64,000 nucleotides of DNA from Sphyrna mokarran. Its lineage: Eukaryota. The stretch covers positions 22,816,001-22,880,000 of the forward strand of contig JAGIQG010000022.1 of the NCBI GenBank assembly GCA_024679065.1, read 5' to 3'. The translations under genes were made by a program, and so were the position numbers. Numbering within the stretch: position 1 is the stretch's first letter; each line of letters begins with the position of its first letter. Under the pieces are notes generated by a model. It saw nothing but the letters and a program-made list of their open reading frames with translations, searched no databases and was not told where the DNA came from. Positions 5,287-51,904 of the stretch are shown one piece after another.

Positions 5287-6085
5287 AATACTGTACACAT
5301 TGCTGGGACCAGAAGCCAAAAGAGAAAATGCTGGAAAATCTCAGCAGGTCTGGCAGCATCTGTAAGCATCAAATCCAGATGACCCTTTGTCAAAACTAAA
5401 AGGCATAGAAAGTGGGAGATATTTATACTGCAGGGTGAGGGAATGAAAGATTAGTCATAACCACAGAAACCAGGGGGAAAAAGCTGCTAATAGCTGTCCA
5501 CAGAATAAAGACTGTGAATGGCCTAATGGCAGAGAAGCAGTAGGCTGTGACAGATGAAGATATTGGAGGGGGTGGGGGTAGGAAGGAATAAGAGGTAGAA
5601 TGTAGAAAAGGGGAATTGGGGGGAGAAAAGTAAGGGAAAGAAGATGAAGTTGGTGGAAATAGTGGGGGAGAAGAAAAATGAAGAAAGACAATAAAGTAAT
5701 AAAGGTAGAGAAAAAATTGAATAAAATAGACAAAAACAAAGGGGCTGAGGTGAGAGAGAGCAAATTATCTGAATTTGTTGAATTTGATATTAAGACTGGA
5801 AGGCTGTAAAGTATCTAGCCTGAAGATGAGATGATCTTCCTCCAGTTTGTGTTGAGCTTCACTGGAACATTGCAGCAAACCAAGGACAGACATGTGGGCA
5901 GGGGAGCAGGATCATGTGTTAAAATGGCAAGCAACCGGAAGGTCAGGGTCCTGATTGCGCACAGACCAAAGGTGCTCGGCAAAGTGATCACCCATTCTAC
6001 AATTGGTCCCTTCAATATAGAGGAGACCACATTGGGAGCAGTGAATGCAATACACCAAATTGAAAGGGTTGCAAGTGGGACTAGA
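5287..6085 (-). mobile_element. Penelope-like element 3' part (GIY-YIG endonuclease remnant, pyrimidine-rich tract, terminal repeat)
   Basis: ORF 5912-6118(-) TCNPFNLVYCIHCSQCGLLYIEG..RMGDHFAEHL..PVACHFN is a PLE GIY-YIG signature; paralogous to 61872-62472. Confidence 0.85.
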
Positions 6086-12226: not shown

Positions 12227-12393
12227 TGAAAAAAAATGCTGTCAAATATTCCCTGTTCCTCACAGAGTGCATTGTTAAGGAGCTTGTGGATAAAATCTTT
12301 ACAAATCACTTAAATTGGCGTGAACTTCCATTTTTTACAGTCCAATTGCATTCCAAATATCTCCTTCCAAAAAAGTCATGCTTCATTGAATGA

Positions 12394-12570
12394 ACACAGT
12401 AACAAGTCTCACAACCCAGGTGAAGTCTTACAACACCAGATCACTTACCTGATGAAGGAGCGGTGCTCCAAAAACTCACGATTCCAAAAAAAATGTTGGA
12501 TTTTAACCTGTTGTTGTCAGACTACTTACTGTGCCCACCCCAATCCAATGCCGGCATCTCCACAGCATTG
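12394..12570 (+). mobile_element. Short PLE-derived inverted-repeat element (family A) with decayed hammerhead; 8-bp TSD
   Basis: GTAACAAGTCTCACAAC...CTGATGAAGGAGCGGTGCTCCAAAA...GTTGTCAGACTACTTAC plus tail TGTGCCCACCCC; TTGAATGA at 12386-12393 and 12571-12578. Confidence 0.75.
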
Positions 12571-13791
12571 TTGAATGAGGTGTAACTAGGTTCTTAATGG
12601 TGTACCAAGTTGCAATTACTGTTGGAAAAACTCCCCTGACCCTAAAATGCCCATTTTATATTTATGGGAGGACAAATGTCTCCATGAGTTTATAATTGTT
12701 AAAAAATTTGTTGATGATATTTCAGTATCTACCCTCAATTTGGCAAAGGTTCCAATCTTTATTTTGCCTTCTGCACTATATAATTAAAATGTGAAGGATA
12801 ATAGTTGTAATTTCCTTCCTGGGTTGCTGTAGGTGAGAATTTTTTAATACTTAGTTTCCTTAATCACATCGCTAGATTTTTAGAGATTCACTTTAGTTGC
12901 TGGCAGAGTTAAAGTAAGTGAAATACACTGCACGCAGAGATGATTAGATTTTTGTGGGCAGCTTTCTTCGAGGTCAGTGGAGAACAAAGTCACTTTGCCA
13001 CTGATTGCAAGAATTTCGGCCAAGAGGGAAATAATAGAAATGTAATTGCGCTTTGTCTGACCTTATGTATGCTGAGAAATGTCTCTGACCTAATCAAGGG
13101 GAGTTGGGAAAGGGGTCTCCCCCACATCTTTCTGCCTGATTGCTTCTGAGGGAGCATTAAATTCTGTCCTAAGGCACTATTCCAAATATAGGTAAGTCTA
13201 TTTTCTGTCCACTCATAACATAACTTGATGAAGTAAATCTCTGAAGAATCATTTGTGCTCCTGCAATTCATTTCATTTTGTTGGGGATATATTGCTTTGA
13301 AAGCAGAGATCTGTAAAACAACTAAAACATATCAAATAATAACTGAATAGGCATTTCAAATTTGTACCAAATAGCAATGAGTTCAAGGGCAATATATGTT
13401 ATACAATCTTGTTCATTTGTAGGTTGTGGATCAATTGATATTGAATCTAAGCACAAAAATCCATGGTGGGATTTAATAGCAGAAAGATGGTTGCAGCACC
13501 TCTCCGGCCATTCTTGGTGACCTCTGACTTGATTTGATGCCACCTGGACTCTTACATGGTTGGCAATGGGAGCCTCGTCACCCTCATGGTTGGCGTCCCA
13601 CCTCTGAGAGCTGCCAACAAATCAGATGTCAGCAGTTCTCCAATACAAACAGTTGGATTCTCTCAGTTTTGCTGTAAGGCCCAGGCTGCTGATCACCAAT
13701 TTATGAAACAAGGTGAGATGAAGGATCAGATCATAGAATACCGATAAATGAAAAAGTGCCACATGATTTAAAGGAATTACAAGGAAGGGTT

Positions 13792-14325: not shown

Positions 14326-14600
14326 GTCCGGCACAAGAGATTGTCATGCAAGATTAAAACACATGGGTCTGGAGGAAGGGTATTGAGATGGACAGAAAAC
14401 TGGTTGGCAGAGACAAAGAGTAGGAATTAATGATTTCTTTTCAAATTGGTAGGCAGTAACTAGTGGAGTGCCACAGAGATCGATACTGGGACCTCAACTA
14501 TTCACAATACACATTGATGATTTGGATGAGGATACAAAATGTAACATATTAAAGTTTGCAGGTGATACCAAGTTGGATGGGAGGGTGAACAATGATGAGG

Positions 14601-15832
14601 TAGGTCGTGCCTCACAAACCTTATTGAGTTTTTTGAGGAGGTGACCAAAGAGGTAGATAAGGGTAAGGCAGTTGATGTTGTGTATATGGATTTTAGCAAA
14701 GCGTTTGATAAGGTTCCCCATGGTAGGCTACTGCAGAAAGCGCAGATGCATGGGATTGAAGGTGATTTAGCAGTTTGGATTAGGAATTGGTTAGCTGATA
14801 GAAGACAGAAGGTGGTGGTTGGTGGGAAATATTCAACCTGGAGTGCAGTTACAAGTGGTGTACCTCAAGGATCTGTTTTAGGGCCACTGCTGTTGGTCAT
14901 TTTTATAAATGACCTAGATGAGGGTGTAGAGGGTTGGATTAGTAAATTTGCTGATGATACCAAAGTGGGGGGAGTTGTAGACAGCGAGGATGGATGTTAC
15001 AGTTTGCAGAGGGACATAGGTTGCAGAGCTGGGCCATGAGGTGGCAAATGGAATTCAATACGGATAAGTGTGAGGTGATTCACTTTGGTAGGAATAACAG
15101 GCATATGAAATATAGGGCTAATGGAAGGACCCTTAATAGTGTTGTCGAGCAGAGGGATCTTGGGGTACAAGTACATAGCTCTTTGAAAGTTGGCACTCAG
15201 GTTGATAAAGTTGTTAAGAAGGCGTACGGTGTGTTAGCTTTTATTGGTAGAGGGATTGAATTTAGGAGCAGTGAGGTTATGTTACAACTGTACAAAACTC
15301 TGGTGCGGCCGCACTTGGAGTATTGCGTACAGTTCTGGTCGCCGCATTATAAGAAAGATGTGGAAGCATTGGAAAGGGTGCAGAGGAGGTTTACCAGGAT
15401 GTTGCCTGGTATGGTGGGAAGGCCTTATGAGGAAAGGCTGAGGGACCTGAGGTTATTTTCATTAGAGAGAAGAAGGTTACGCGGTGACCTAATTGAGGCG
15501 TATAAGATGATCAAGGGATTGGATAGGGTGGATAGTGAGAGCCTTTTTCCTCGGATGGTGATGACCAACACGAGGGGACATAACTTTAAATTAAGAGGTG
15601 GTAGTTATAGGACGGATGTCAGAGGCAGGTTCTTTACACAGAGGGTGGTGAGGGCGTGGAATGCCCTGCCTGCAGCAGTTGTGGACTCGCCTACTTTGGG
15701 GACATTCAAATGTTTGGTGGATAGGCATATGGATGATATTGGAGTAGTTTAGGTTAGAGGGTCCACTGGCTGGCGCAACATCGAGGGCCGAAGGGCCTGT
15801 ACTGCGCTGTAATGTTCTATGTTCTATGTTCT
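14601..15832 (+). mobile_element. Young 5'-truncated CR1 LINE (HER1-like) with (TATGTTC)n tail
   Basis: RT motifs [24 protein letters not shown]; 3' end GGGCCGAAGGGCCTG...AATGTTCTATGTTCTATGTTCT; only AGG is shared at the junctions. Confidence 0.95.
14641..15752 (+). pseudogene. CR1 ORF2 reverse transcriptase (partial), one frameshift near 15015
   Basis: ORFs 14641-15039 and 14994-15752 join if 4 nt (ATAG) are restored in GACATAG^GTTG, giving DIDRLQSW. Confidence 0.9.
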
Positions 15833-16254
15833 AGGATGCAGAGATGCTTCAGAATGTCCTGACAGGTTGGGTGAGTGGGCTAATCAATAGTGGATGCAGT
15901 ATAATTTGGATAAATGTGAGGTTATTTACTTTGGAAGCAAAAACAAGAAGACAGATTACTACCTGAATAGTTATGAATTGTGAGAGGGAAGTGTGTAGCA
16001 GGACTTGGGTATCCTTGTGCATCATTCACTGAAAGTAAGCATGGAAGTGCAGCAGGTGGTAAAGAAGGTAACTGGCCTTCATTATGAGAGATTTTGAATA
16101 CAGTAGCAAGGATGTGTTGCAATTATACGGGGCCTTAGTGGGGTCACACCTAGAGTATTGTGTGCAGTTTTGATCTTCTTTTCTGAGGAAGGATGTTCTT
16201 GCTTTCAAGGGAGTGCAGCAAAGGTCTACCAGGCAGGGATGGCGGGACTGATGT

Positions 16255-16578
16255 GTGACACATGACAGCGCAGAGTCACTGAGCAGAGACTGATAGCCAA
16301 ATTTCGCACACATAAGGACTGCCTCAACCGGGATCTTGGGTTCATGTCACAGTATCTGTAAACCCCATGACTTGCCTGGGCTTGCAAAATCTCACTAACT
16401 GTCCTAGCTGGAGACAATACATAGAACATAGAACATAGAACACTACAGCACAAACAGGCCCTTCGGCCCACAAGTTGTGCCGAACACATCAAAACCTACC
16501 CAGCCATAGACCTATCTATAACCCCCAATCCCATTGGATCCCATATACTCATCCAGAGTACACATCTCTTCAACCTGT
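16255..16578 (+). mobile_element. Penelope-like element ORF C-terminus and 3' region
   Basis: Translates QRRVTEQRLIAKFRTHKDCLNRDLGFMSQYL*, a typical PLE C-terminus; split by the 16422-16558 insert. Confidence 0.75.
16422..16558 (-). mobile_element. Short young CR1 3' tail insertion
   Basis: (CATAGAA)n followed by CAGGCCCTTCGGCCC; TACA duplicated at 16418-16421 and 16559-16562. Confidence 0.85.
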
Positions 16579-17379: not shown

Positions 17380-18119
17380 GAGAATCCTACAGTATGGAAG
17401 GATGCCATTCAGCCCATCAAATCTCCACTGACCACAATCCCACCCAAACCCTATCCCCATAACACCATGTATTTACCCTAAGTAAGCTCTCTGACATTAA
17501 AGGGCAATTTAACATGGCCAATCCCCTTAACCTGCACATCTTTGGACTGGGCCAAAGAATATACAGCAACAATATTTATCTAATGCAACAATTTTAAATA
17601 TTATGGCTTTGAAATTTCAATTTCTGTATCAGTGTGCATTCTTGGTGCATTGCAAAATATTTCAGTTTATTCCAGGATGAGTTTTTGCTATAACCTCAAT
17701 AACTTCTTCCACCTGGAATGCAAAAACAGAAAAGGCAATGGAGGCATTGTTAAGGCTTTCACATGATACAGGGAAATAAAACAGGAGTCAGCTGCTAACA
17801 CAACAGAAGGTTTAACATTTGGACTGGCCAATAAAAAAAATCATAAAGCACCCCAGGATTTTTTATTTTTAAAAAGAATTGTAAGAAGTCTCACAATGCC
17901 AAGTTAAAGTCCAACAGGTTTATTTGGTAACACAAGCTTTCAGAGTGCTGCTCCCTCATCAGGTGGGCTGTGGGAGGAAACCAGAGGATCCGGAGGAAAC
18001 CCATGCAGACATGGGTAGAATGTGCAAATTCCACACACATAGTGAGCTAAGGACGGAATAAACTTGCGTCCCTAGCGATGTGAGGCAGCAGTGTTAACCA
18101 CTGTGCCAATGTGTCGCCC
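17380..18119 (-). mobile_element. HE1-type V-SINE split into 17380-17548 and 17966-18119
   Basis: The halves join at CATCTTTGGACTG|TGGGAGGAAACC. Confidence 0.75.
17931..17965 (-). ncRNA. Minimal type I hammerhead ribozyme motif in a PLE family A repeat arm (17881-17965)
   Basis: Minus strand CAC CUGAUGA g GGAG cagca CUCU GAA AGCU U GUG: stem I CAC/GUG, both core boxes, palindromic AGCU. Confidence 0.7.
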
Positions 18120-19173
18120 AAGAGCCCTGATATCTGGTAGCTCTTTAGAAATGGCATGCACCCGAGCCCCATTTTGCCCTTGAATTCCTGCTTAAGGGAT
18201 TGATACTAACATTTAAGCGATAACGTATCATCTTGGGGCACCTAAGTTGCATTCCTTGGTTTGCATTACTTCTAGCACCATCCACCCTCCTCGAGGCCAA
18301 GACATCTCATCTGATTCAGCATTCTGGCCTCCATTTTGACCAAAGAAGTGCAAATGAACAGGTTTGAGATTCCCAGCCCCACTTGACTTGCCCTCTCTGA
18401 CATGCCTGGTCCTGTAAGGAATGGATAGACATTTCACCCCTGACAATGCCAGCTGGAAATTGTCAACAAGGGTTGGAAACTGGCATGCCACGATCTCTTT
18501 GCAGATGGCTCCACTGGGACTTCCATAGAACCCCATAGAGTCCGTACGGTGCAGAAAGAGACCATTTGGTCCATTGAGTGAAATTGTGGGAAGAACCCAA
18601 GGAAACTGTCAAGGAAATTTGGCTCCATTGTATGTATTTTGGAAATCCAAAATCCAAATGCTCTCAGTGATCTTTTATGAGGAAGGAATTGCTGCATTCT
18701 CAGTTGAGCATTATTTTGAATACATTCCTTTTTTGTGCAAGCTTTGCGTGAATTGCAAAACAGCAGAAATAATTCTTTTTGTATGATTCCATATCCTTCT
18801 ACTGAAATCTCTCAGTGCCAGGGATCAGGGTTCAATTCCCGGTTGGGTCACTGTCTATGTGGAGTTTTCACATTCTCCCTGTGGCTGTGTGGGTTTCATC
18901 CAGGTGCTGCAGTTTCCTCCCATTGTCCAAAGATGTGTGGGATAGATAGATAGATCAGCCATGCTAGATTGTTCCTTAGTGTCAGGGGGACTAGCTAGGA
19001 TAAACGCATGGGGTTGTTAGGGTGGGCATGGGTGGGATTCATAGCAGTGCATAGAAACCTTACGGTATAGAAAGAGGCCACTTCATCTGCACTAACTACA
19101 ATCCCACAAGGCCTTACGCCATATCCTTACATATTTACTGACTAATTCTTCTAATCTACATATCTACATATCT

Positions 19174-21038
19174 GACGCAAATCTTTGTCTCTTCCTTGGA
19201 CACAGGTGAGGTCCCAGAGGACTGGAGGATAGCAAACGTAGTACCGTTGTTTAAAAAAGGTCAGAGGGATCACCCAGGGAACTATAGGCCGGTGAGCTTG
19301 ACTTCAGTTATAGGTAAGCTAATGGAGAGGATCCTTAGGGACAGGATGTATGAGCATCTGGAGCGCTGCAATCTGATCAGGGATACGCAGCATGGCTTCG
19401 TCAAGGGGAAGTCTTGTCTTACGAATCTGGTGGAATTTTTTGAAGAAGTGACAAAAACAGTTGATGAAGGACAGGCTGTTGATGTCGTCTACATGGATTT
19501 CAGTAAGGCGTTTGACAAGGTTCCTCATGGTAGACTGATAGAGAAGGTGAAGGCGCATGGGATACAGGGTCGGGTATGTAGATGGGTCGAAAACTGGCTC
19601 GGGAGGAGGAGACAGAGGGTAGTAGTGGAAGGCTCTTTTTCCGGCTGGAAGCCTGTCACTAGTGGAGTGCCACAAGGCTCAGTACTAGGTCCTCTTCTAT
19701 TTGTGGTCTACATAAACGACTTGGAAGTAGGGGTAGGTGGTGAGATCAGCAAATTTGCTGATGACACCAAGATGCTTGGATTGGCGGGTACAGAAGAGCA
19801 GTGTCAGGCAATACAACAGGACATAGACAGGTTGGTAGATTGGGCAGATAGATGGCAAATGGAATTTAATCCGGAAAAATGCGAGGTGATGCATTTTGGC
19901 CGGAAAAATGTAGAAGAGAATTATAGGATAAAAGGTAAAACTATAAGGAGCATAGAGACGCAGAGAGACTTGGGGGTGCAGGTTCACAAGTCTCTGAAGG
20001 TGTCCTCACAGGTGGAGAAGGTGACAAAGAAGGCGTATAGTATGTTAGCTTTCATAGAAAAGGGTATAGAATATAAGAGTAGGAGTTTGATGTTGCAGTT
20101 GTATACAACTTTGGTTAGGCCTCACTTGGAATACTGCGCCCAGTTCTGGTCTCCGTACTATCGGAAGGATGTGGAGTCCTTGGAGAGAGTGCAGAGGAGG
20201 TTTACCAGGATGCTGCCTGGTATGGAAGGACTGTCTTATGAGGAACGATTAAATAGACTGGGGTTGTTTTCCCTTGAAAGACGTCGGCTTAGAGGGGATC
20301 TCATAGAGGTGTATAAGATTATAAGGGGTATAGATAGAGTAAATGGAGGTAAACTTTTTCCACCTTTAGAAATGGATAGGACGAGAGGTCATGGCCATAG
20401 GGTGAGGGGGGCTATGTATAGGACGAATATTAGAGGGCAGTTTTTCACACAAAGGGTAGTGGGGGTGTGGAATGCACTGCCGAGTAAGGTGGTGGGAGCA
20501 GGCACGCTGGGGCTGTTTAAGGGTCTCTTGGACAGCCACATGAGCGGTATGCAGATAGAGGGATATATTAGGACTGTTTAACTACGGCTTTTTTCCACAG
20601 GTAATTCGGTCCATAATTTGAGCACGCATTCGGCAGGTGGTGCGGGTACAGCTCTTGGATGTTGATTCATGGGTTGCCTGGTACCTCATGTCGTATATGA
20701 GTGCTTTATGTGGACCACCTGAAGGGCACCATGACAGCTCAGAGACTATCGATGTGGCTGTGCAGACACTTGGAATTGGGCCGGTGTCTGCGGGAGTTTG
20801 CGCGTTCTCCCCGTGGTTGCGTGGGTTTTCTCCGGGCACTCCGGTTTCCTCCCACAACCCAAAAATTCGCTCTTAGGCTGATTGGGTAACAAATTGTCCC
20901 TATGGTGAAAATTTTCCAAATTAGGATTAATATATATTATTATATAGGACTATTAAAATAGGATAATGATTTGGTATTACGGTGGCGCGGGCTCGTTGGG
21001 CCGAAGGGCCTGTTTCCCGTGCTGTGCTGTGTTGCTTA
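19174..21038 (+). mobile_element. Young 5'-truncated CR1 LINE with ~455-nt 3' UTR; 8-bp TSD
   Basis: TSD ACATATCT at 19166-19173 and 21039-21046; open ORF2 segment; 3' end GGGCCGAAGGGCCTGTTTCCCGTGCTGTGCTGTG. Confidence 0.95.
19196..20581 (+). CDS. CR1 ORF2 reverse transcriptase domain (5'-truncated, no endonuclease, no true start)
   Basis: 461 uninterrupted codons with [44 protein letters not shown] and FFTQRV..WN.LP. Confidence 0.92.
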   Translation: MDTGEVPEDWRIANVVPLFKKGQRDHPGNYRPVSLTSVIGKLMERILRDRMYEHLERCNLIRDTQHGFVKGKSCLTNLVEFFEEVTKTVDEGQAVDVVYMDFSKAFDKVPHGRLIEKVKAHGIQGRVCRWVENWLGRRRQRVVVEGSFSGWKPVTSGVPQGSVLGPLLFVVYINDLEVGVGGEISKFADDTKMLGLAGTEEQCQAIQQDIDRLVDWADRWQMEFNPEKCEVMHFGRKNVEENYRIKGKTIRSIETQRDLGVQVHKSLKVSSQVEKVTKKAYSMLAFIEKGIEYKSRSLMLQLYTTLVRPHLEYCAQFWSPYYRKDVESLERVQRRFTRMLPGMEGLSYEERLNRLGLFSLERRRLRGDLIEVYKIIRGIDRVNGGKLFPPLEMDRTRGHGHRVRGAMYRTNIRGQFFTQRVVGVWNALPSKVVGAGTLGLFKGLLDSHMSGMQIEGYIRTV

Positions 21039-22010
21039 ACATATCTCAGTATACTAAGGGACATTTTAACATGGCCAATCAACCTAACCTGCACATCTTT
21101 GGACTGTGGGAGGAAACAGGAGCACCCGGAGGTACGTATACAAACACAAGACGAATGTGCAAACTCCACACAGACAGTGACCCAAGCCGCGAATCAAACC
21201 CAGGTCCCTAGAGCTGTGAAGCAGCAGTGCTAACCATTGTGCTATCGTAGTGGGATTGTGGTTGGTGCAGACTCAATGGGCCAAATGGACTTCTTGTGCA
21301 CTGCAGGATTCTATGAATCAAACATTAGCTGAGAATTACATAACATAGACTATTCATCAAGTTTTAGTAGAGTTTGTGCTAATCTTGGGAAAAATTTTTC
21401 TTGTTATTCTTACTTACAATTTGAGGTGCAATGCAACTCAACTAGAAAAGAATGCAGTAAATGAGGAAGATAATTGCAGCGTAACAAAATCTGTTCATCA
21501 GATTAAAATATGGCTAATATTTTACGTTCCATAATGCAAAGTACATCAAAATATTTTTAATTTTAATTTTGTGTTTGATTCCAGTTAGTGTGTAGGTTGA
21601 ATATTTACAGATCAACTATTGTAAGTCGTAAAGAGTCTCCTAGAGTGTTGTGGAGTGGGAGCCCCCACTGTATGGTACTTCAATGTCCTGATCTTGGTAA
21701 CTGGCACTTTGTTAGATTTCACAGTTTTCCACCGGGGAATTTCCACACTGAATGCAGTTGATGATCACATTAATTTTGAAAGCTCAATGAATTTTTCTAT
21801 GATTTCTGAGAATTCATTCAAGAGGTTAAGGTTTGTGGCCAGTTGTTTCAGTCCATAATTGTTCTTGGGGCGAGCAGGGGGATATGAGGAGTTAGCAGCT
21901 TCAGCATATATACAACTGGCTGTGAATTCTTTGAACACTGTCACTTCAGGTATTGAATTGTCCATTGAAAATGTTACAGAAGCATGTCAACCCATGGGCC
22001 TCTTTGTCAT

Positions 22011-29700: not shown

Positions 29701-29807
29701 ATTCTGGAAATTTGTTGTGATCTAGTTTTTAGTAATGGAGATTAATTGCCTATTTGAAGAATAAAGTTTGATTGAACTCTACTAAATCTGACTGCTTAAA
29801 AAAAGGA

Positions 29808-30056
29808 GGAGATGCTGGCGTTGGACTGGGGTGGGCACAGTAAGAAATCTCACAATACCAGGTTAAAGTCCAACAGGTTTATTTGAAATCATGAGTTTTT
29901 TGGAGCTCTGCCCCTTCATTATGTGAGTGGAGGTTAGTTAGTGAGTGGAGACTAGCCTCCAATCACCTCCACTCATCTGATGAAATAGCAATGCTCTGAA
30001 AGCTCATGATTCCAAATAAACCTATGGCCTTTAACCTGGTGCATGAGACTTCTTAC
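29808..30056. mobile_element. PLE-derived fold-back element (family A) with two opposed hammerhead motifs
   Basis: Arms GTAAGAAATCTCA...AGGTTAAAG...TTTATTTG / CAAATAAA...CTTTAACCT...TGAGACTTCTTAC; plus-strand motif CAT CTGATGA..GAAAGCTC ATG at 29974-30008. Confidence 0.8.
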
Positions 30057-30403
30057 TTGCCCAAAAAGACATTTGGACGGTTAATGAAATTTGAAAAGTA
30101 TGATGCAGAATAGACAGGACTAGGCTGCAGATAATAAGGCCATGAGAAACCATTGCAAACACCAGGAAAAGTGTTTGTTAACATCAATCTGTAGTCATGA
30201 AGGACAGAGAAAGTGAGAAGTTAAAACATGTTCATTGCAGCAAGAATGGTAGAAAACTGACATTCTGAAGTGTAACAGAAAACAGTTCAGGAGATGGAGT
30301 CTGGAGAAACTCTGCAGTGATGGATTGTTAACCTTAGTCTCCTGGTAAAGAACATTCAGCCATTGAGGTGTGAGTTACACTTCTAATGATGACTGTATGA
30401 ATT

Positions 30404-30700: not shown

Positions 30701-31474
30701 CTCCCAATTTCTATCCAAGTCACTTCTGATCTTACCAAAGAGTGTCTATAAAAACCCATCGCCGAACCTCTCCTTCAGCTCATAATTAAGCACAGACTGA
30801 ACTTCTTACCCTTGTGACGAGTTGTGTATTTGCTTGTCGGTCACGTCACATTCTCAGAATCATCGGTTGATGTTGTGAAGCAAGAGTAAGCCATCCTATT
30901 ACTAAACAAGACTGTGATATAATTCAATTATTTCCCTTTGACATACAATCTACCTTGTAAATCTTATCATTGGAGCAGGGGAACAGATTGCTATTTGCCG
31001 CAGAGTGTGTGGTTCAAGTGGAAGAAATATGAAAGAGAGCCTTGCGGCCCTCCATGTACATGTTGTCTAAACATCATCTTAATGGTAATGGTCAGACCAC
31101 GAGATACTTGTAAAAGCAGCTGCAGTTGTTTTAAATAGCTTTCTCTGCAAAATGCTTTTATCGTATGCTGCAGGATTGTGGTGTCTTTCTCACCTAGGTC
31201 AAGGAAATATATGCATCAATTTATCACTGTAACACTAACATACCTGTGTTCAGTATTCTCTAACAGTGGTGAAATGCATTAGAAGATCTTTCATAAAATC
31301 ACTCACCATGTGCTTTTCCAATTTTTTGCAATTAGTGCTTTAGCTCCACAATTCTTGGAGTTTTCAATGTCGCTATGAGGGCAGGACTTGTTTAACATTT
31401 GGAAATGACTGTTAGACAATTTCAACTCTTAATTGGAAGCCGTTTTCCTTGAGTTACTTGCTTGTTTAAATGGA

Positions 31475-31682
31475 CGGTAAGTAGTCTCACAACACTAGCT
31501 TAAAGTCCAACAGGTTTATTTGGTGACAAGCTTTTGGAGCGCTGCTCTTTCATCAGGTAAGTTGCCTGATGAAGGAGCAGCACTCTGAAAGCTTGTGCTA
31601 TCAAATAAACTGGACTTTAACCTCGTGTTGTGAGCCTACTTACTGCGCCCACCCCAATCCAATTACAGGCAATTCTACATCA
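31475..31682. mobile_element. PLE-derived fold-back element (family A), two opposed hammerhead motifs, 12-bp TSD
   Basis: TGTTTAAATGGA at 31463-31474 and 31683-31694; ACAAGCTTTTGGAGCGCTGCTCTTTCATCAGG taagttg CCTGATGAAGGAGCAGCACTCTGAAAGCTTGT. Confidence 0.88.
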
Positions 31683-32211
31683 TGTTTAAATGGAAATCTT
31701 GCTTCCCATATTGCTTAACTCAGATTGCTTCATTCATAAAACTGTTGGACAATTGAAGTATCAAGCCCAAATCTCTCCGGGGGAGTTGGATTAGATGATA
31801 GACCTTTATTCCATATGTCCATTGTGGAAGTTTCTCATTACAAGAGAGAATGAATCGTTGGGGTAAGCTTTGAAAAATGAATTCAGTCTATCTTTATCGA
31901 AATGAATAGAAAAGTGCTAAAAAAAACTCCTTAATTTTCACTAAGCTGCAAGAAATGAAAGGAAAATTGGAAATGACTAGTGCTGGTGTGTTGCGCATGA
32001 TTTTAAAATGTTACCTTGCATGAGCAAATAATTTGCATTTGATTTGCAGAACAGCTGATGGAGGTATTTGTTAGCTACTGAATCAGATGGGATGACCATC
32101 GGTCTACACTCTAATTACATCCATTTCTGGGCTAACCCTTAAGAGAGTCAGCTGTGGCATCGTTGTAGCTATCTAATCTCTAAGTCAGAGGGTTGTGGGT
32201 TCAAATCTTAA

Positions 32212-32645: not shown

Positions 32646-35600
32646 AGACAGGGGAATGAGTAAATGCAGAATGATTCACTTTGTGTACAAGACCAGGAAC
32701 CCCAAATAGATTGTATTTATGTGTTCTGGCCCATTCCTATAGGCATCCAACCTACGTGTAGTTTTGTCATGCTGGAAAGCACTGATCCAGATTCTGATGA
32801 ACCTAATAATACCACACAGCATATTTGCCCAAATTATGCACATCCATCATTGTCAGTCCTAATGAAGCACATCTGTTCAGAGGGCAGTAAAACAGCTGTA
32901 GGGAACCCAGATTAGTATGGGTGCTGATAGAAACTGATGGCTTATTGTGCATTAAGTGGTGCAACACAGAACCTCATGACAGAAGGGTCATGGGTAGGGG
33001 TATAATGGTATTCAACTGGTTAGTGCATTAGTAGACAAATAAATAGCTAGGAAGCAACAGTAGTCAGGCCAACAGAACTAAATGGTGCTTGACTAGCTGA
33101 TGCTACAAGATGGCAAATGCATTGTGCTGAATAATCTGGCTAATTTTCCTATAAGTAAGAATCAATGTCATCTGTAAGGACTACATCTATCTGAATAGTC
33201 AAGCATCATTTGGTAATGATATCAGTTGTCAATTCCATAATCAGAAAAGCTGCAGAGACCAGCGAATGATCGTTCTCAACTCACTGGAGTAAAACAGTAC
33301 ACGACTTGAAGCCCAGATATGGAATCTTCTTAAAGATACAGCGTCATAACTTTCAACCAATCTTTTTGTCAAAACAAGTAAACTAACTCAAATTAACAAG
33401 ACAATAAATTAAAAAGGGCAGCTCCTAAAAAAGGGAACAATCCGAAACAAAAGACAAAGCAGAAAGATATGGGGCAATAATACACTCCAATCACTGTGGT
33501 GCCCAGCAGGCACAGTGTTAATGGTGCCCTCAGACACTGCATGCTCCCTCTCCAGGGACACCTGGTTGTGAATATAGCGGCAGTAGAGGGGCAGATAGTT
33601 AGGTCAAAAGACACCTTTGGTCGCCCACTGCCTGGACTTGTAGTTGGCAAGTTTTGCCATGTTTAGGAGGAGGTTTAGCCATAACTTTCAACCAGAGCCA
33701 GAAATTGATGTTCCAGTGTAATGACTTCAAGAAGGCCTGTGAGGTGGGCTCTTGGAGTATGAGCTCCTTGATTGAACTAATGATTGCCTGCCCAATCAGG
33801 GAAACTCATCTGTATGTATATTTAGGAGTGTCTGGGATACTGACACTCTGGATTCTGGCTGTGTAGCCAAAGCACTTTTAGGAATGAAGGTAAGCTTATA
33901 AATAAAGGGAATCAGAGGAGCTATTTCATTCATTAGAATTAGAAGACCTTAAAGACTTACTTGCTCTTGAAAATTGTACCGAATCTACAATGGTCAGACC
34001 TGCTTGGGGCTGCATCAAAAGAGTCCATGCGAGCCCCAGTGTTGACAATCAGCATCAGATTCAGGGAGGCCACCTCCTTTCTTTACTACACTGGCTGTCA
34101 TAAAACCGATAAGCTTAAAGGGCTCAGTGAAACTGACAGATCAGCAAGAAGATAAATGGATGGGATTTGTGTGGTTAGGAGGTGTTGGAGATCGAGGAGT
34201 AGGTTGGGGAGGAGTCAGAGGTGAGAGGATTCAGAAGTTTGGAGGTTGGGCGGATCAGCTTGGAAGATCTAGTCAGATCAAGAACTGGTTTGAGAATCAG
34301 CTTGGGAAGGTGGAGAGGAGCAGAGTGTGGTCATAGAATAGGGAGATTCCCATGGGTGGGGCTGGGATGGGAAGAATATGGTTGGAGGGGTGAGTGACAA
34401 TTCAATGGGAGATTCCTGTGCAAGGATTTGCCCGAATACTTAAAATATGCATAAATTAGAAGAGGTCTTATTTCTTTTAACTTTTTGAGTGCCTGTTAGT
34501 ATAACACTGGCAAAACCACCTGATGATTTAAATCATTTTATTGGATGGTTCCCAGCCCAATTGTCCAGGAAAAGTTAGCATTTACGGACAATTACTGTGT
34601 AAACCATTCTCTGGGAAATTCCGAGAGGAAATCCCCAGTATCTCTGGGGTACTGTCAAATCTGACACTGGGAAGTCATGAGCTACAGTGTCCTCCTTTTA
34701 AAGTTTATTTAAGCGGAGTAACTTAAGCAATTTTGATTTCAATAATGTCTCTGCTAATTCACGAGCATCACAATAACTGGGAGCAGCTTAGGATGGCCGA
34801 ATGGGTACCACTCCCAGCAAGGCCATAATGGCAAATGAACCCAGAAGATTCTGTGCTGAGCATATTAGTGCCATTTAAATTAGCATTAAAATATATGCAC
34901 ATGATATATTCAGCTCACCGGAAATCCAGCTCTTGTAAGATCGCAACAGCAGAGGAAATCGGATGTGATCCTGATTTTTTTTGACTCTCACACACTGGGT
35001 GTTGTGAATCAGTAAAATCCCGGCCCTTGGGAAATGCCAGCAATGAACTCCATTGAAACTGTAGGAATTGTCTACCAATTACAGCAGTCCAGCGGCTGTG
35101 GTATTTCAAACTATGACTGCTTCTGCCTGTCCTCTTTTTTTTTTAACATCGTTTAAAGGGTTTGGAGTTTAAATAACTTAATATCAGCACAGAAAGCTAG
35201 CAAGTTTACTATCAAATAAATTGGTTGGATTTAAAGTTGGTGTTGTCAGACCTCTTACTTTGTGTTTCCTGCCAGTGTGAGTCACAGTTCACTCCTTCCC
35301 ATTGCCCAGCCCTTGGTAAATGGGGTGGGACTATCTCATCCAGGTCCCATCCACCATTTTTTAAAGATTTATAGAGCCATTAAATCTACTGACCTTAATT
35401 CACTCAGTTTGTAGATACCAGAAGTACCAACTCAATTTCCAAGTATCAATTTGACTGGTGGCTAAATGGCAATGTTAGAAGGTCATGAGTAGGCATCTTT
35501 GCAATTCCTGGGTGCTTGTGCCAGAATTGCACTAAGCTACATCTCTGCTCATAGAAAACGGGCATCCAAGGCTGCTCTAAGTGAATGTGTATACGAAGGA

Positions 35601-48609: not shown

Positions 48610-48965
48610 GAACTGTCAAACTGTAAAAACTCTCTGGTTGTCAAATGGTTTTCACAAACTATCCAGCTGTCAAAGAAATATTCAGCCATCAAAGAACTGT
48701 CCAGCTATCAACAAAATGTCCAGCTCTTAAAAAAAGGTTAAGGGGCTTCCCAGCTTTCAAGGAAATGTTCAGCTGTCAAGAAAATGTGAAGGAGCTAACC
48801 AACTGTAAAAGAAATGTTAAGGAGTTGTCCAGCTGTCAAGGAAATGTCCAGATGTTAATGCACTGCCCGGCTATCATGGAGTTTTCAAGGAAATGTCCAG
48901 CTGTCAAGGAAATACCAGAGAACTGACCTACTGTTTAAGCTGTCCAGAAAGTGTCAAAGATGTTC
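48610..48965. repeat. Degenerate ~19-bp tandem array, consensus CCAGCTGTCAAGGAAATGT
   Basis: About ten imperfect units visible, e.g. at 48663, 48750, 48770, 48829 and 48897. Confidence 0.8.
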
Positions 48966-49736: not shown

Positions 49737-51582
49737 CCGCCCTCTCAGTAATATTAACAGGAGGCCCAAACAATTTTGTTTTAAAGAATGGCAAGATATC
49801 TGCACTTAAAGATTGCACTGGAGCGAGGTGACTTCTTGCAAACTGTGCCCGGCGTATCTTCTAATCCTACCTCTTGCTATCGTTCTGTGCTTCTAAAACT
49901 TTATTCTAACTCTTTTAAACTCTCTAACAAGGCTTGAATGCCATTGCTTACAGATTTGGCAATCCTTAGGATTCTGGCTACACCTTAACTATGACTGTAA
50001 CACTACATTCTGCAGTTTTCTGTTTCCTTCTCTATGAACAGTATGCTCTGTCTATATCGCACACAAGAAACAATATTTTTCACTGTATACATATACATGT
50101 GACAATAAATCAAATTAATCCCATCACTTGCTGTTTGGGAAAGCAGAAAAGCTGAAGGGTCTGTTGCTCACTAACGTGGCCTTGCAACCTCTCAAGAGGG
50201 TGGGTTTTGGAAAACACCCTGTTGTCCACAATGTCAATGGCTGGTAGCATCATCCCTTGGACCTGGTTTTCATGCATTGTCAACGTATGATTTCTTTTGC
50301 AATGCCTGTTACTCTGTACCCAGTCTTGCGACATCATACCCATCCCCAGCCTGACCGTCCCTCTCCTGTTGAACAAACCCCCCCTTTCAAATGCGCTTTC
50401 TCTATACAACTCCCTCTGCTTATATTCACACAATCAGCACCTGCCACTGCCTCAACATTGGCACAGGAACAACCTGTTTTTATTTTGTTTGGACTTGGAA
50501 TTATTCCCACATTTTTGTTAAGTTCTTTGATAGTTCACACTGCATAAATTTCTTTCATCTACAGACTTTGCATTCTTACTGTTTCTTCCTCTCAGCATGC
50601 GTGTTATGTTCAGCTCCCTCACATCCCTTTTGCACGTCATGCACTAACCGAGTCCGCTTTCCTGGTGATACAAACTTGCACTCAATTTGAGGATGATTCA
50701 GGACTGGGTGAGGTGCAACATCATAGTGAGAACACTTTCATCTATATCATTGGCAGATAGAGGGCTCAAATACACAGAAGACACTCAGCACTTTTGCTTT
50801 AACTAAACTCACCACACACAGCATTGCATCTAGCCATTAAGGATGGGATTTTACAGAAGCACTTGCCCCAAGGCTAAAAAATTCTGCCGGAGATCAATGG
50901 ACATTTGCATTGTGCGTGTCCTACCTGCCATGATTTCCATGGTGAGCAAATGGGAAAATTCTACCCTATGTTTGAAGACATTCTCCCCATGCTCTGTTTC
51001 TATCTGCAAATCAATATTCCTGATGTCTGGATTGCTACTGCAGTAACATAACCTGTATGATATTGTAAACAACTGGTTCTCTAAGTGCTGCGGATTGTAA
51101 GTTGGAGGGATCCACACAGAAACTTGTGGCACCAATTATTAGCATCATGGTGGTGCTAAGTAGATTCTTTGCTCCATCATCTACTTTGCATTAGACATGC
51201 TAGCAGGTTATAGAGTAGGATCTTCAGTCCCATCATGGATCTCCTAGTGTCTAACTTCCCACAGATTGAAAGAAGATTTGATCCATTGCCCCATAATAGG
51301 GGCAATCATGCAATGGGCATGGAGCATGTTCTCTCGAGTTAGTAGCATTTCCACATATTCAACACCTCCTCAAACAATGCTTTTTTCAGAACCAGCAGTG
51401 GCAGACTACTCCAAAACCCTCCGAAATGCTGGGAATGAGCAGATTGGCAGAACTCATCTGAGTCAAGCCAGGCTTCTATCTCCCATGCCGAAACTATCGA
51501 GGGAGCACCTCATGAGAGTAATAGGGTAGGACCTCATAATATAGGAGACTGCTTAAGAAATCATGATGGGATGAATCCCGGG

Positions 51583-51649
51583 TGATAATCAATTTGTCGA
51601 TATTTTTGTAAAAAATTTGCTTACAAAAATATCGACAAATTGATTATCA
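51583..51649. repeat. Perfect 29-bp inverted repeat with 9-nt spacer
   Basis: TGATAATCAATTTGTCGATATTTTTGTAA aaaatttgc TTACAAAAATATCGACAAATTGATTATCA. Confidence 0.97.
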
Positions 51650-51904
51650 TTATGATCTTTATGAAATCTTTATAAGTCAAATGTTTCTATTGTAGTTGAT
51701 TTTTTTGTACCTATTGATAACTATATCAATGTTGGCTTTGGGTTGAAAAGGTTTTCTTTAGGATGGAAGGACTGGGACAGATGTTGAATATTGCTGCTGT
51801 TGTGAGGCAGGAACCAGTCTTGTTCCCATGAAGAGATTTTAATTGATGCCGTGCTGGAGGGATCTGGCTGCAAGCAGGCGTTTGATCCTGTAACGAACTG
51901 GCTT

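Follow-up and report, generated by a model that had tools for sequence, protein, structure and literature searches.

The insertion at positions 31463-31694 of the window (the whole 64,000-nucleotide stretch of Sphyrna mokarran DNA that was analysed) likely arose in a single event, in which two 5′-truncated ends of a Neptune/Nematis-type Penelope-like element (PLE) were set head to head between 12-bp repeats, with no palindromic master copy involved. Its identity as a truncated, inverted PLE insertion is almost beyond doubt, and the head-to-head junction was very probably made at the time of insertion. As to how the junction was made, priming from both sides is slightly favoured over self-priming of a folded-back strand. 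The locus itself is an old, dead insertion of a described type, ordinary in kind: an inverted pLTR with a one-sided 30-40-bp tail and a target-site duplication (TSD) has already been described in the available text of PMC3846280 and PMC8557442. The population to which it belongs serves as a test set for a question that PMC8557442, in its available text, leaves open, namely how PLEs form inverted structures and tails.

Architecture of the Insertion

Positions within the arms are counted from the C of CTGATGA. The features of the insertion are as follows.

31463..31474, plus strand: left TSD, 12 bp, exact repeat of 31683-31694
31475-31682: insert of 208 bp between two copies of TGTTTAAATGGA
31475..31561, minus strand: inverted pLTR arm without tail, -6 to +90 in the profile of natural pLTR copies
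31522..31561, minus strand: left minimal hammerhead remnant, GAAA changed to AAAA at 31535-31532 (G12>A), predicted inactive
31557..31565, no strand: head-to-head junction, 9 nt separating the two CTGATGA cores, a common spacer class
31560..31643, plus strand: sense pLTR arm; arm and tail together 86% identical to copies L044, L048 and L049
31562..31598, plus strand: minimal type I hammerhead of the right arm, with an intact core and decay in both stems I and II; cleavage predicted after 31594
31644..31682, plus strand: one-sided PLE tail, 39 nt, right side only, stopping where the ATG of the parent ORF begins
31683..31694, plus strand: right TSD, 12 bp, whose initial TG may alternatively be part of the element's ATG

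The overall layout proposed in the earlier note is borne out. The repeat TGTTTAAATGGA, claimed as a 12-bp TSD, is found at 31463 and 31683 and nowhere else in the window, and its length falls within the 11-14-bp range of young relatives. The inverted arms, put at about 85 bp, are 81% alike (80.9% alignment identity over 173 columns), and the tail, put at about 40 nt on one side, measures 39 nt and lies on the right only. The centre of 7 nt holds as it was originally counted, but becomes 9 nt if measured between the CTGATGA cores. Both arms start at approximately -6 relative to the core in the profile, whose ends have a tolerance of a few nt. The arm without tail ends at +90, compared with +85 to +106 in the tail-less arms of young copies.

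The plus-strand RNA of the insertion is predicted to fold with a minimum free energy of -112.8 kcal/mol (z = -15.1), a stability equalled by none of 200 shuffles, and silencing or double-stranded RNA effects of the fold-back may be possible in principle. No empty insertion site was seen, this genome having no relatives among those searched, and no host exon was identified in the window, where nine long frames gave a single RVT_1 match.

Parent Element

A genome search with the arm alone returned copies with a solo arm, with a close partner, or with a partner hundreds of bases away. One of these copies (L059) includes the first part of an ORF, which when used as a query gave 150 matches, 15 of them in open frames of at least 895 aa. 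Among 20 loci examined, 7 contain an ORF of 893 aa that is flanked by arm matches at either end. The arm profile stops exactly at the ATG of the full-length ORFs in every case in which the 5′ pLTR is retained. On the downstream side, 21 arms sit 201-281 nt after the ORF end; in L044, L048 and L049, arms 86% identical to the focal arm lie 206-215 nt beyond the last codons of the ORF. Because arms so similar follow the ORF end and the profile ends at the ATG, each focal arm is the 3′ part of a PLE pLTR, and the tail is its last ~40 nt up to the ATG. The PLE origin proposed earlier is thereby confirmed, the autonomous element being linked through an RT and GIY-YIG ORF that carries flanking arm matches; the description as an ORF-less retro-insertion with a TSD stands as well.

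The 893-aa ORF matches RVT_1 with E 1.5e-9, above the cut-off, and GIY-YIG with E 4e-4, just below the Pfam cut-off, and it contains the motifs DKG, YIDD, CX4CXXC and VYLIRC..C..YIG. The features ascribed to EN+ PLEs in the available text of PMC8557442 are found, with ADKG at 297, VYLIRCKKGCPEAWYIG at 793 and histidines downstream. Between RT and EN, the CX2-5CxxC linker that marks Neptune/Nematis is present as CHSNLCKTC at 755; according to the same portion of PMC8557442, this linker is absent from Penelope/Poseidon. By these motifs, the parent is classified as a Neptune- or Nematis-type EN+ PLE. The intact 893-aa ORFs belong to a younger sister subfamily and not to the focal type.

Hammerhead Ribozymes

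Two opposed minimal hammerheads had been proposed for the two arms. The opposed pair is indeed present, but an intact core is found in the right arm only. The right arm reads CTGATGA-A-GGAGC-AGC-ACTCT-GAAA-GCTT-GTG, in which stem II contains one mismatch and a closing G-U pair, and the left arm reads CTGATGA-A-AGAGC-AGC-GCTCC-AAAA-GCTT-GTC, in which the core G12 has become A. G12 is the general base of the hammerhead. In the full hairpin, the predicted probabilities of the hammerhead stems are 0.0; for the right arm alone, stem I again scores 0.0 and stem II 0.0-0.4. Both focal ribozymes are predicted to be disabled, the core of the left one being broken and both folds being blocked by the 85-bp hairpin. 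The claim of two working ribozymes in this copy is consequently not upheld.

At the level of the family, the picture is different: the hammerhead core columns are invariant in 16 copies, 89% of the stem cells are paired, and six of the eight stem pairs change on both sides between subfamilies. None of 500 shuffles reached a pairing as high and slid controls gave at most 58%, figures that do not amount to a probability, the copies being related. The invariant core and the stem covariation indicate that a minimal type I hammerhead (core CUGANGA / GAAA / UH with stems I and II) is real in the family, as the earlier note had supposed. The motif quoted there, GGAGC-agc-GCUCC-GAA-AGCU, is valid as the family pattern but not for the focal copy, both arms of which deviate from it.

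Since a transcript of either strand carries one sense ribozyme only, no intramolecular dimer is possible. In vitro, minimal hammerheads were reported to show no monomer cleavage and low dimer cleavage (PMC4209133, available text). An Rfam scan of the window gave no hammerhead family up to E = 5, with chance hairpin matches only, so Rfam is blind to this minimal form.

The antisense of hammerhead stem I at 31554-31562 reads CAG|GTAAGT, and the centres of the family read CAG|GTGAGT. Both are strongly splice-donor-like, so that many insertions would show a donor-like site at the hairpin tip.

Related Copies in the Window

Four related copies had been listed for the window, all of which were confirmed, and a further PLE fragment was found.

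12386..12578, plus strand: related insertion, one hammerhead arm with tail at 12441-12569, left arm a partial duplicated piece, 8-bp TTGAATGA repeats at 12386 and 12571
16188..16421, plus strand: further PLE fragment, last ORF codons and upstream pLTR without hammerhead, tblastn 56% to residues 837-893, profile match
17880..17967, minus strand: solo arm without tail, beginning 5 nt before the core and adjoining a SINE-like repeat
29806..30057, minus strand: palindromic insertion, tail on the left, complex centre of 57 nt, no convincing TSD
35187..35268, plus strand: fragment in which the beginning of the core is missing

Twenty unselected blocks of 50 kb, 1.0 Mb in all, contain 41 insertions, corresponding to 2.6 expected per 64 kb. 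Five insertions in the window are therefore not unusual (P = 0.13 for at least five per 64 kb against the genome background), and the high density that had been suggested is not supported. Extrapolated from the 20 blocks, about 41 insertions per Mb would amount to some 100,000 in the genome, which could make them an abundant source of hairpin RNA within introns.

Centres, Ends and Target-Site Duplications

When the whole palindrome was searched against the genome, 4,933 first-look candidates were obtained, 40 of which were scored. Taking into account that such a search favours copies with the same centre, the centre distribution was taken from arm-only matches and the 20 unselected blocks. By exact pattern, opposed cores separated by 0-30 nt are present at at least 1,399 loci (control 0), 482 of which have spacers of 5-12 nt, and opposed cores separated by 31-60 nt are present at 408 loci (control 1). 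Measured from the core, the 5′ ends in the unselected 1 Mb are spread between +58 and positions further out than -500, and the lengths of the centres form a continuous range that extends past 1 kb. Among 33 young palindromes, 28 different oriented centres (read with the tail on the right) were found. Recurrent young centres are seen facing either way relative to the tail (8-nt, 2:2; 19-nt, 2:1; 31-nt, 1:1), as are the old 9-nt centres (10:6 by our reading). Copies L238-L277 were hand-picked from the first-listed pattern matches, a choice biased towards centres that recur and spacers no longer than 60 nt. The varied centres, together with the occurrence of the same centre in both orientations, argue for mainly one-off products and not for a MITE-like family. 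The comparison of centres proposed in the earlier note thus comes out on the side of independent truncation and inversion products, with L212/L221 as the exception.

Exactly one of the two sides carries the tail in 25 of 27 unselected pairs, at least two of which (B14 7108 and B15 2325) look mis-paired, and in 92 of 98 pairs overall. Repeats of at least 8 bp flank 63 of the 98 pairs, compared with 5 of 300 mismatched-flank controls. The young copies supply sharp figures in the form of an 11-14-bp TSD, two end zones and a 5′ wall. With shared letters assigned to the target, the TSD measures 11-14 bp in 27 of 29 young copies (L224, L240, L249 and L256 left out). In 29 young copies, the tailed end lies between +127 and +139, where +131 is the A of the ATG and the top values, up to +139, are inflated by chance matches to the flank; the tail-less end lies at +85 to +106. 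The overlap at the junction is 0-4 nt in 23 of 32 junctions. L210 and L211 represent one duplicated locus.

The two arms usually share subfamily variants, which suggests that most insertions had one source template. At three variable non-CpG sites, the arms of young pairs (n = 30; L224, L240 and L256 left out) differ in 0, 0 and 2 cases against 5.4, 5.4 and 14.9 expected. In old pairs they differ in 5/43, 6/49 and 8/45 cases against about 20 expected, L260 and L265 being left out of the old-arm set. Fold-back self-priming, or conversion at a later time between arms so close together, would predict such concordance just as well. In L261, in L249 and L257, and in L213 and L218, the variants of one arm point to a different subfamily or source copy from those of the other.

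L223 and L257, which have different centres, lie in paralogous repeat sequence and share the same 13-bp TSD in opposite orientation, which suggests a preferred, symmetric cut site.

Where the Arms Begin

Of 72 unselected arms, twelve have their first position in the bin from -12 to -3, a rate of 1.2 per nt compared with 0.15-0.4 in neighbouring bins; this bin was picked after seeing the data, and 8 of its 12 arms are bounded by the partner arm. Of 21 long copies, 14 have a TATA-like motif between -31 and -46; the five that are of the young type all lack it. A hand-picked set of the young type, in which spacers of up to 60 nt were allowed, has 61 of its 64 ends no more than 22 nt away from the core, including 23 at 18-22 (L224, of another subfamily, left out of the 5′-end counts). 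The young subfamily accordingly has a 5′ wall at about -22, without the TATA motif. The positions at which old-type and young-type arms start both match an initiator-like sequence. These positions suggest that the cDNAs run off the 5′ end of an uncleaved RNA. Contigs X1, X2 and X6 cover a young full-length copy without giving start sites, and may originate from DNA.

Hammerhead cleavage as a source of 5′ ends is not supported: four of 72 arms start at +26 to +35, which is 0.4 per nt against about 0.2 nearby, a weak test. Likewise, no cut-site junction was seen by eye to dominate among the centres listed (397 and 997 loci; controls 7 and 8).

Formation of the Head-to-Head Structure

Formation of the insert during a single PLE insertion event would proceed as follows. 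The element's protein, probably a dimer, would nick both target strands 11-14 bp apart. Reverse transcription would be primed by one nick at the end of the tail (approximately +129 to +133) and by the other at a point some 35-40 nt deeper in the element (+85 to +100), both times on RNA of the same source element. Both cDNAs would then head for the 5′ end of the RNA, which in the old subfamily would lie about 6 nt before the core and about 30 nt after the TATA-like box, and they would be joined through 0-4 nt of microhomology, giving a product in the order TSD, tail-less inverted arm, arm with tail, TSD. The hammerhead would be a passenger of the pLTR and would not need to cleave. In the available text of PMC11167929, the anole Poseidon protein is reported to cut and extend both target strands in vitro, without hammerhead cleavage being needed; its reverse transcription starts at two internal sites bounding the tail, and the protein is modelled as a dimer. 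Since both of these starts lie inside the ORF and not at the ATG, the analogy is one of architecture.

It is somewhat unlikely that the mirror arm, itself of PLE origin, was produced by self-priming, with the cDNA or an antisense template folding back and copying itself. This route would fit the identity of the arms over 86 nt in most young copies (mean differences of 0.3 within versus 1.25-1.39 between) and the near symmetry of many centres, and self-priming on an antisense template has been proposed for Adineta Penelopes (PMC3846280, available text). For a cDNA primed at the tail, it predicts, however, a tailed arm at least as long in the 5′ direction as the tail-less one, whereas the 5′ reach is greater for the tailed arm in 14 copies, greater for the tail-less arm in 14 and equal in 4 (n = 32), the tail-less arm being longer by more than 100 nt in several. 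Moreover, one segregating T/A site distinguishes the arms in 2 of 30 young pairs and the arms of L261 come from different subfamilies, observations that under self-priming would both need later conversion. That the short fold-backs instead form a self-propagating non-autonomous family of MITE or retrozyme kind, in which whole palindromes are copied by the PLE machinery, is quite improbable. Centres of 8-9 nt do recur, non-autonomous PLE derivatives are known (bioRxiv 10.64898/2026.07.22.740005; PMC8557442; available text of both), and L212:1365-1632 and L221:1365-1632 hold 268-bp palindromic inserts at unrelated sites that match at 100%, down to an unusual junction and a shared mismatch between the arms, with unrelated flanks and different TSDs. 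Against such a family, the centres vary continuously to more than 1 kb and the same centres appear in both orientations, in the young as well as in the old type. The 52 old pairs show no side-specific signature (distances tail-tail 0.170, tailless-tailless 0.173, cross 0.174), although this comparison would miss a perfectly symmetric master. Retrozymes, in addition, are head-to-tail tandems and not head-to-head pairs, and with one sense hammerhead per strand no dimer would be available within one transcript. A non-LTR retrozyme was rejected on the same ground: the arms lie on opposite strands, with one core per strand and no same-strand tandem.

The probability that the element is a DNA-transposon MITE, with only a chance resemblance of its arms to hammerheads, is practically negligible. 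The inverted arms, the lack of an ORF and the narrow TSD range of 11-14 bp would suit it, but the arms are the pLTR of an RT element, the ends are unequal (one-sided tail) and ragged over about 20 nt, and the hammerhead stems covary across subfamilies. The uniform length, shared centre and equal terminal repeats of a MITE were not found either, there being 28 oriented centres among 33 palindromes and unequal, ragged ends; the link to an RT and GIY-YIG ORF refutes this origin.

Independent insertion events, which remain the preferred origin, have two cases against them, the identical inserts of L212/L221 and the pair L241/L242, which share the same centre in the same orientation. Some palindromes may therefore be copied whole or homogenised by gene conversion. 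For L212/L221, the two inserts may be re-copied palindromes, products of one source that was already inverted, or the result of gene conversion. A fuller scheme, combining a dimeric enzyme, an 11-14-bp stagger, priming on both strands and run-off at the RNA start with the transcription and whole re-insertion of some fold-backs such as L212/L221, is unlikely as a whole. If it were true, the junction would map the promoter, and re-inserted fold-backs would be the seed of a hairpin-shaped, non-autonomous class of retroelements.

Comparison with Known Systems

The closest architectural parallel is offered by the EN+ PLE Pen2a_Av of Adineta vaga (PMC3846280 and PMC8557442, available text), in which an inverted, 5′-truncated pLTR likewise stands head to head with a direct one. 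As in the focal type, its insertions have a tail of 30-40 bp on one side and a short TSD, and its pLTR has a TATA and an Inr-like TCACT. The TSD of Pen2a_Av is 8-10 bp, compared with 11-14 bp here. In contrast to Pen2a_Av, the insert described here consists of two ends of about 85-125 nt only, without an ORF, and such minimal forms are present in thousands.

The metazoan PLE minimal type I hammerheads described in the available part of PMC4209133 share with the focal ribozymes the bulged base before stem II, the short stem I and the GAAA-GC-U-H arrangement with palindromic 15.2-16.2. Dual min-HHRs on opposite strands, 100-700 bp apart and with little or no monomer cleavage, were reported there in 2014. 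Unlike these, the focal cores are 9 nt apart, with a stem II of 5 bp and the left G12 lost.

The Poseidon element of Anolis carolinensis (PAc; PMC11167929, available text) resembles the present family in that its tail is bounded by two end positions. PAc belongs to the Penelope/Poseidon clade and its ORF starts inside the hammerhead, whereas the ORF found here contains the CX4CXXC linker and begins at the end of the tail, some 125-130 nt downstream of the core.

Non-LTR retrozymes, as presented in the available text of bioRxiv 10.64898/2026.07.22.740005, are also ORF-less, contain a type I hammerhead and derive from the pLTR of PLEs, and they were found in vertebrates, including one cartilaginous fish genome. 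They are head-to-tail tandems with at least two same-strand ribozymes, in contrast to the single head-to-head pair of the focal locus with one sense ribozyme per strand. No paper on minimal palindromes in cartilaginous fish or on PLE twin priming was found in the literature searched, most subscription journals and Repbase being outside its scope.

Other Repeats in the Window

A weak match to the GIY-YIG region of the PLE ORF (30%, E 9e-5) at 5810-6076 on the minus strand is probably a remnant of a distant PLE family. LINE-like RT remnants are present at 14599-15752 and at 19142-20581, the latter with an open frame of 479 aa (RVT_1, E 3e-35). At 51571-51660, an AT-rich, near-perfect hairpin of 90 bp, unrelated to the PLE and with chance matches to miRNA families, is possibly a small DNA-transposon remnant. 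A degenerate tandem array with spacings of 19 and 30 nt occupies 48665-48939. Finally, a SINE-like repeat occurs across the window in more than 20 copies on both strands, including 20776-21242, with an inverted pair at 20831-21130; several PLE insertions outside the window sit inside this repeat.
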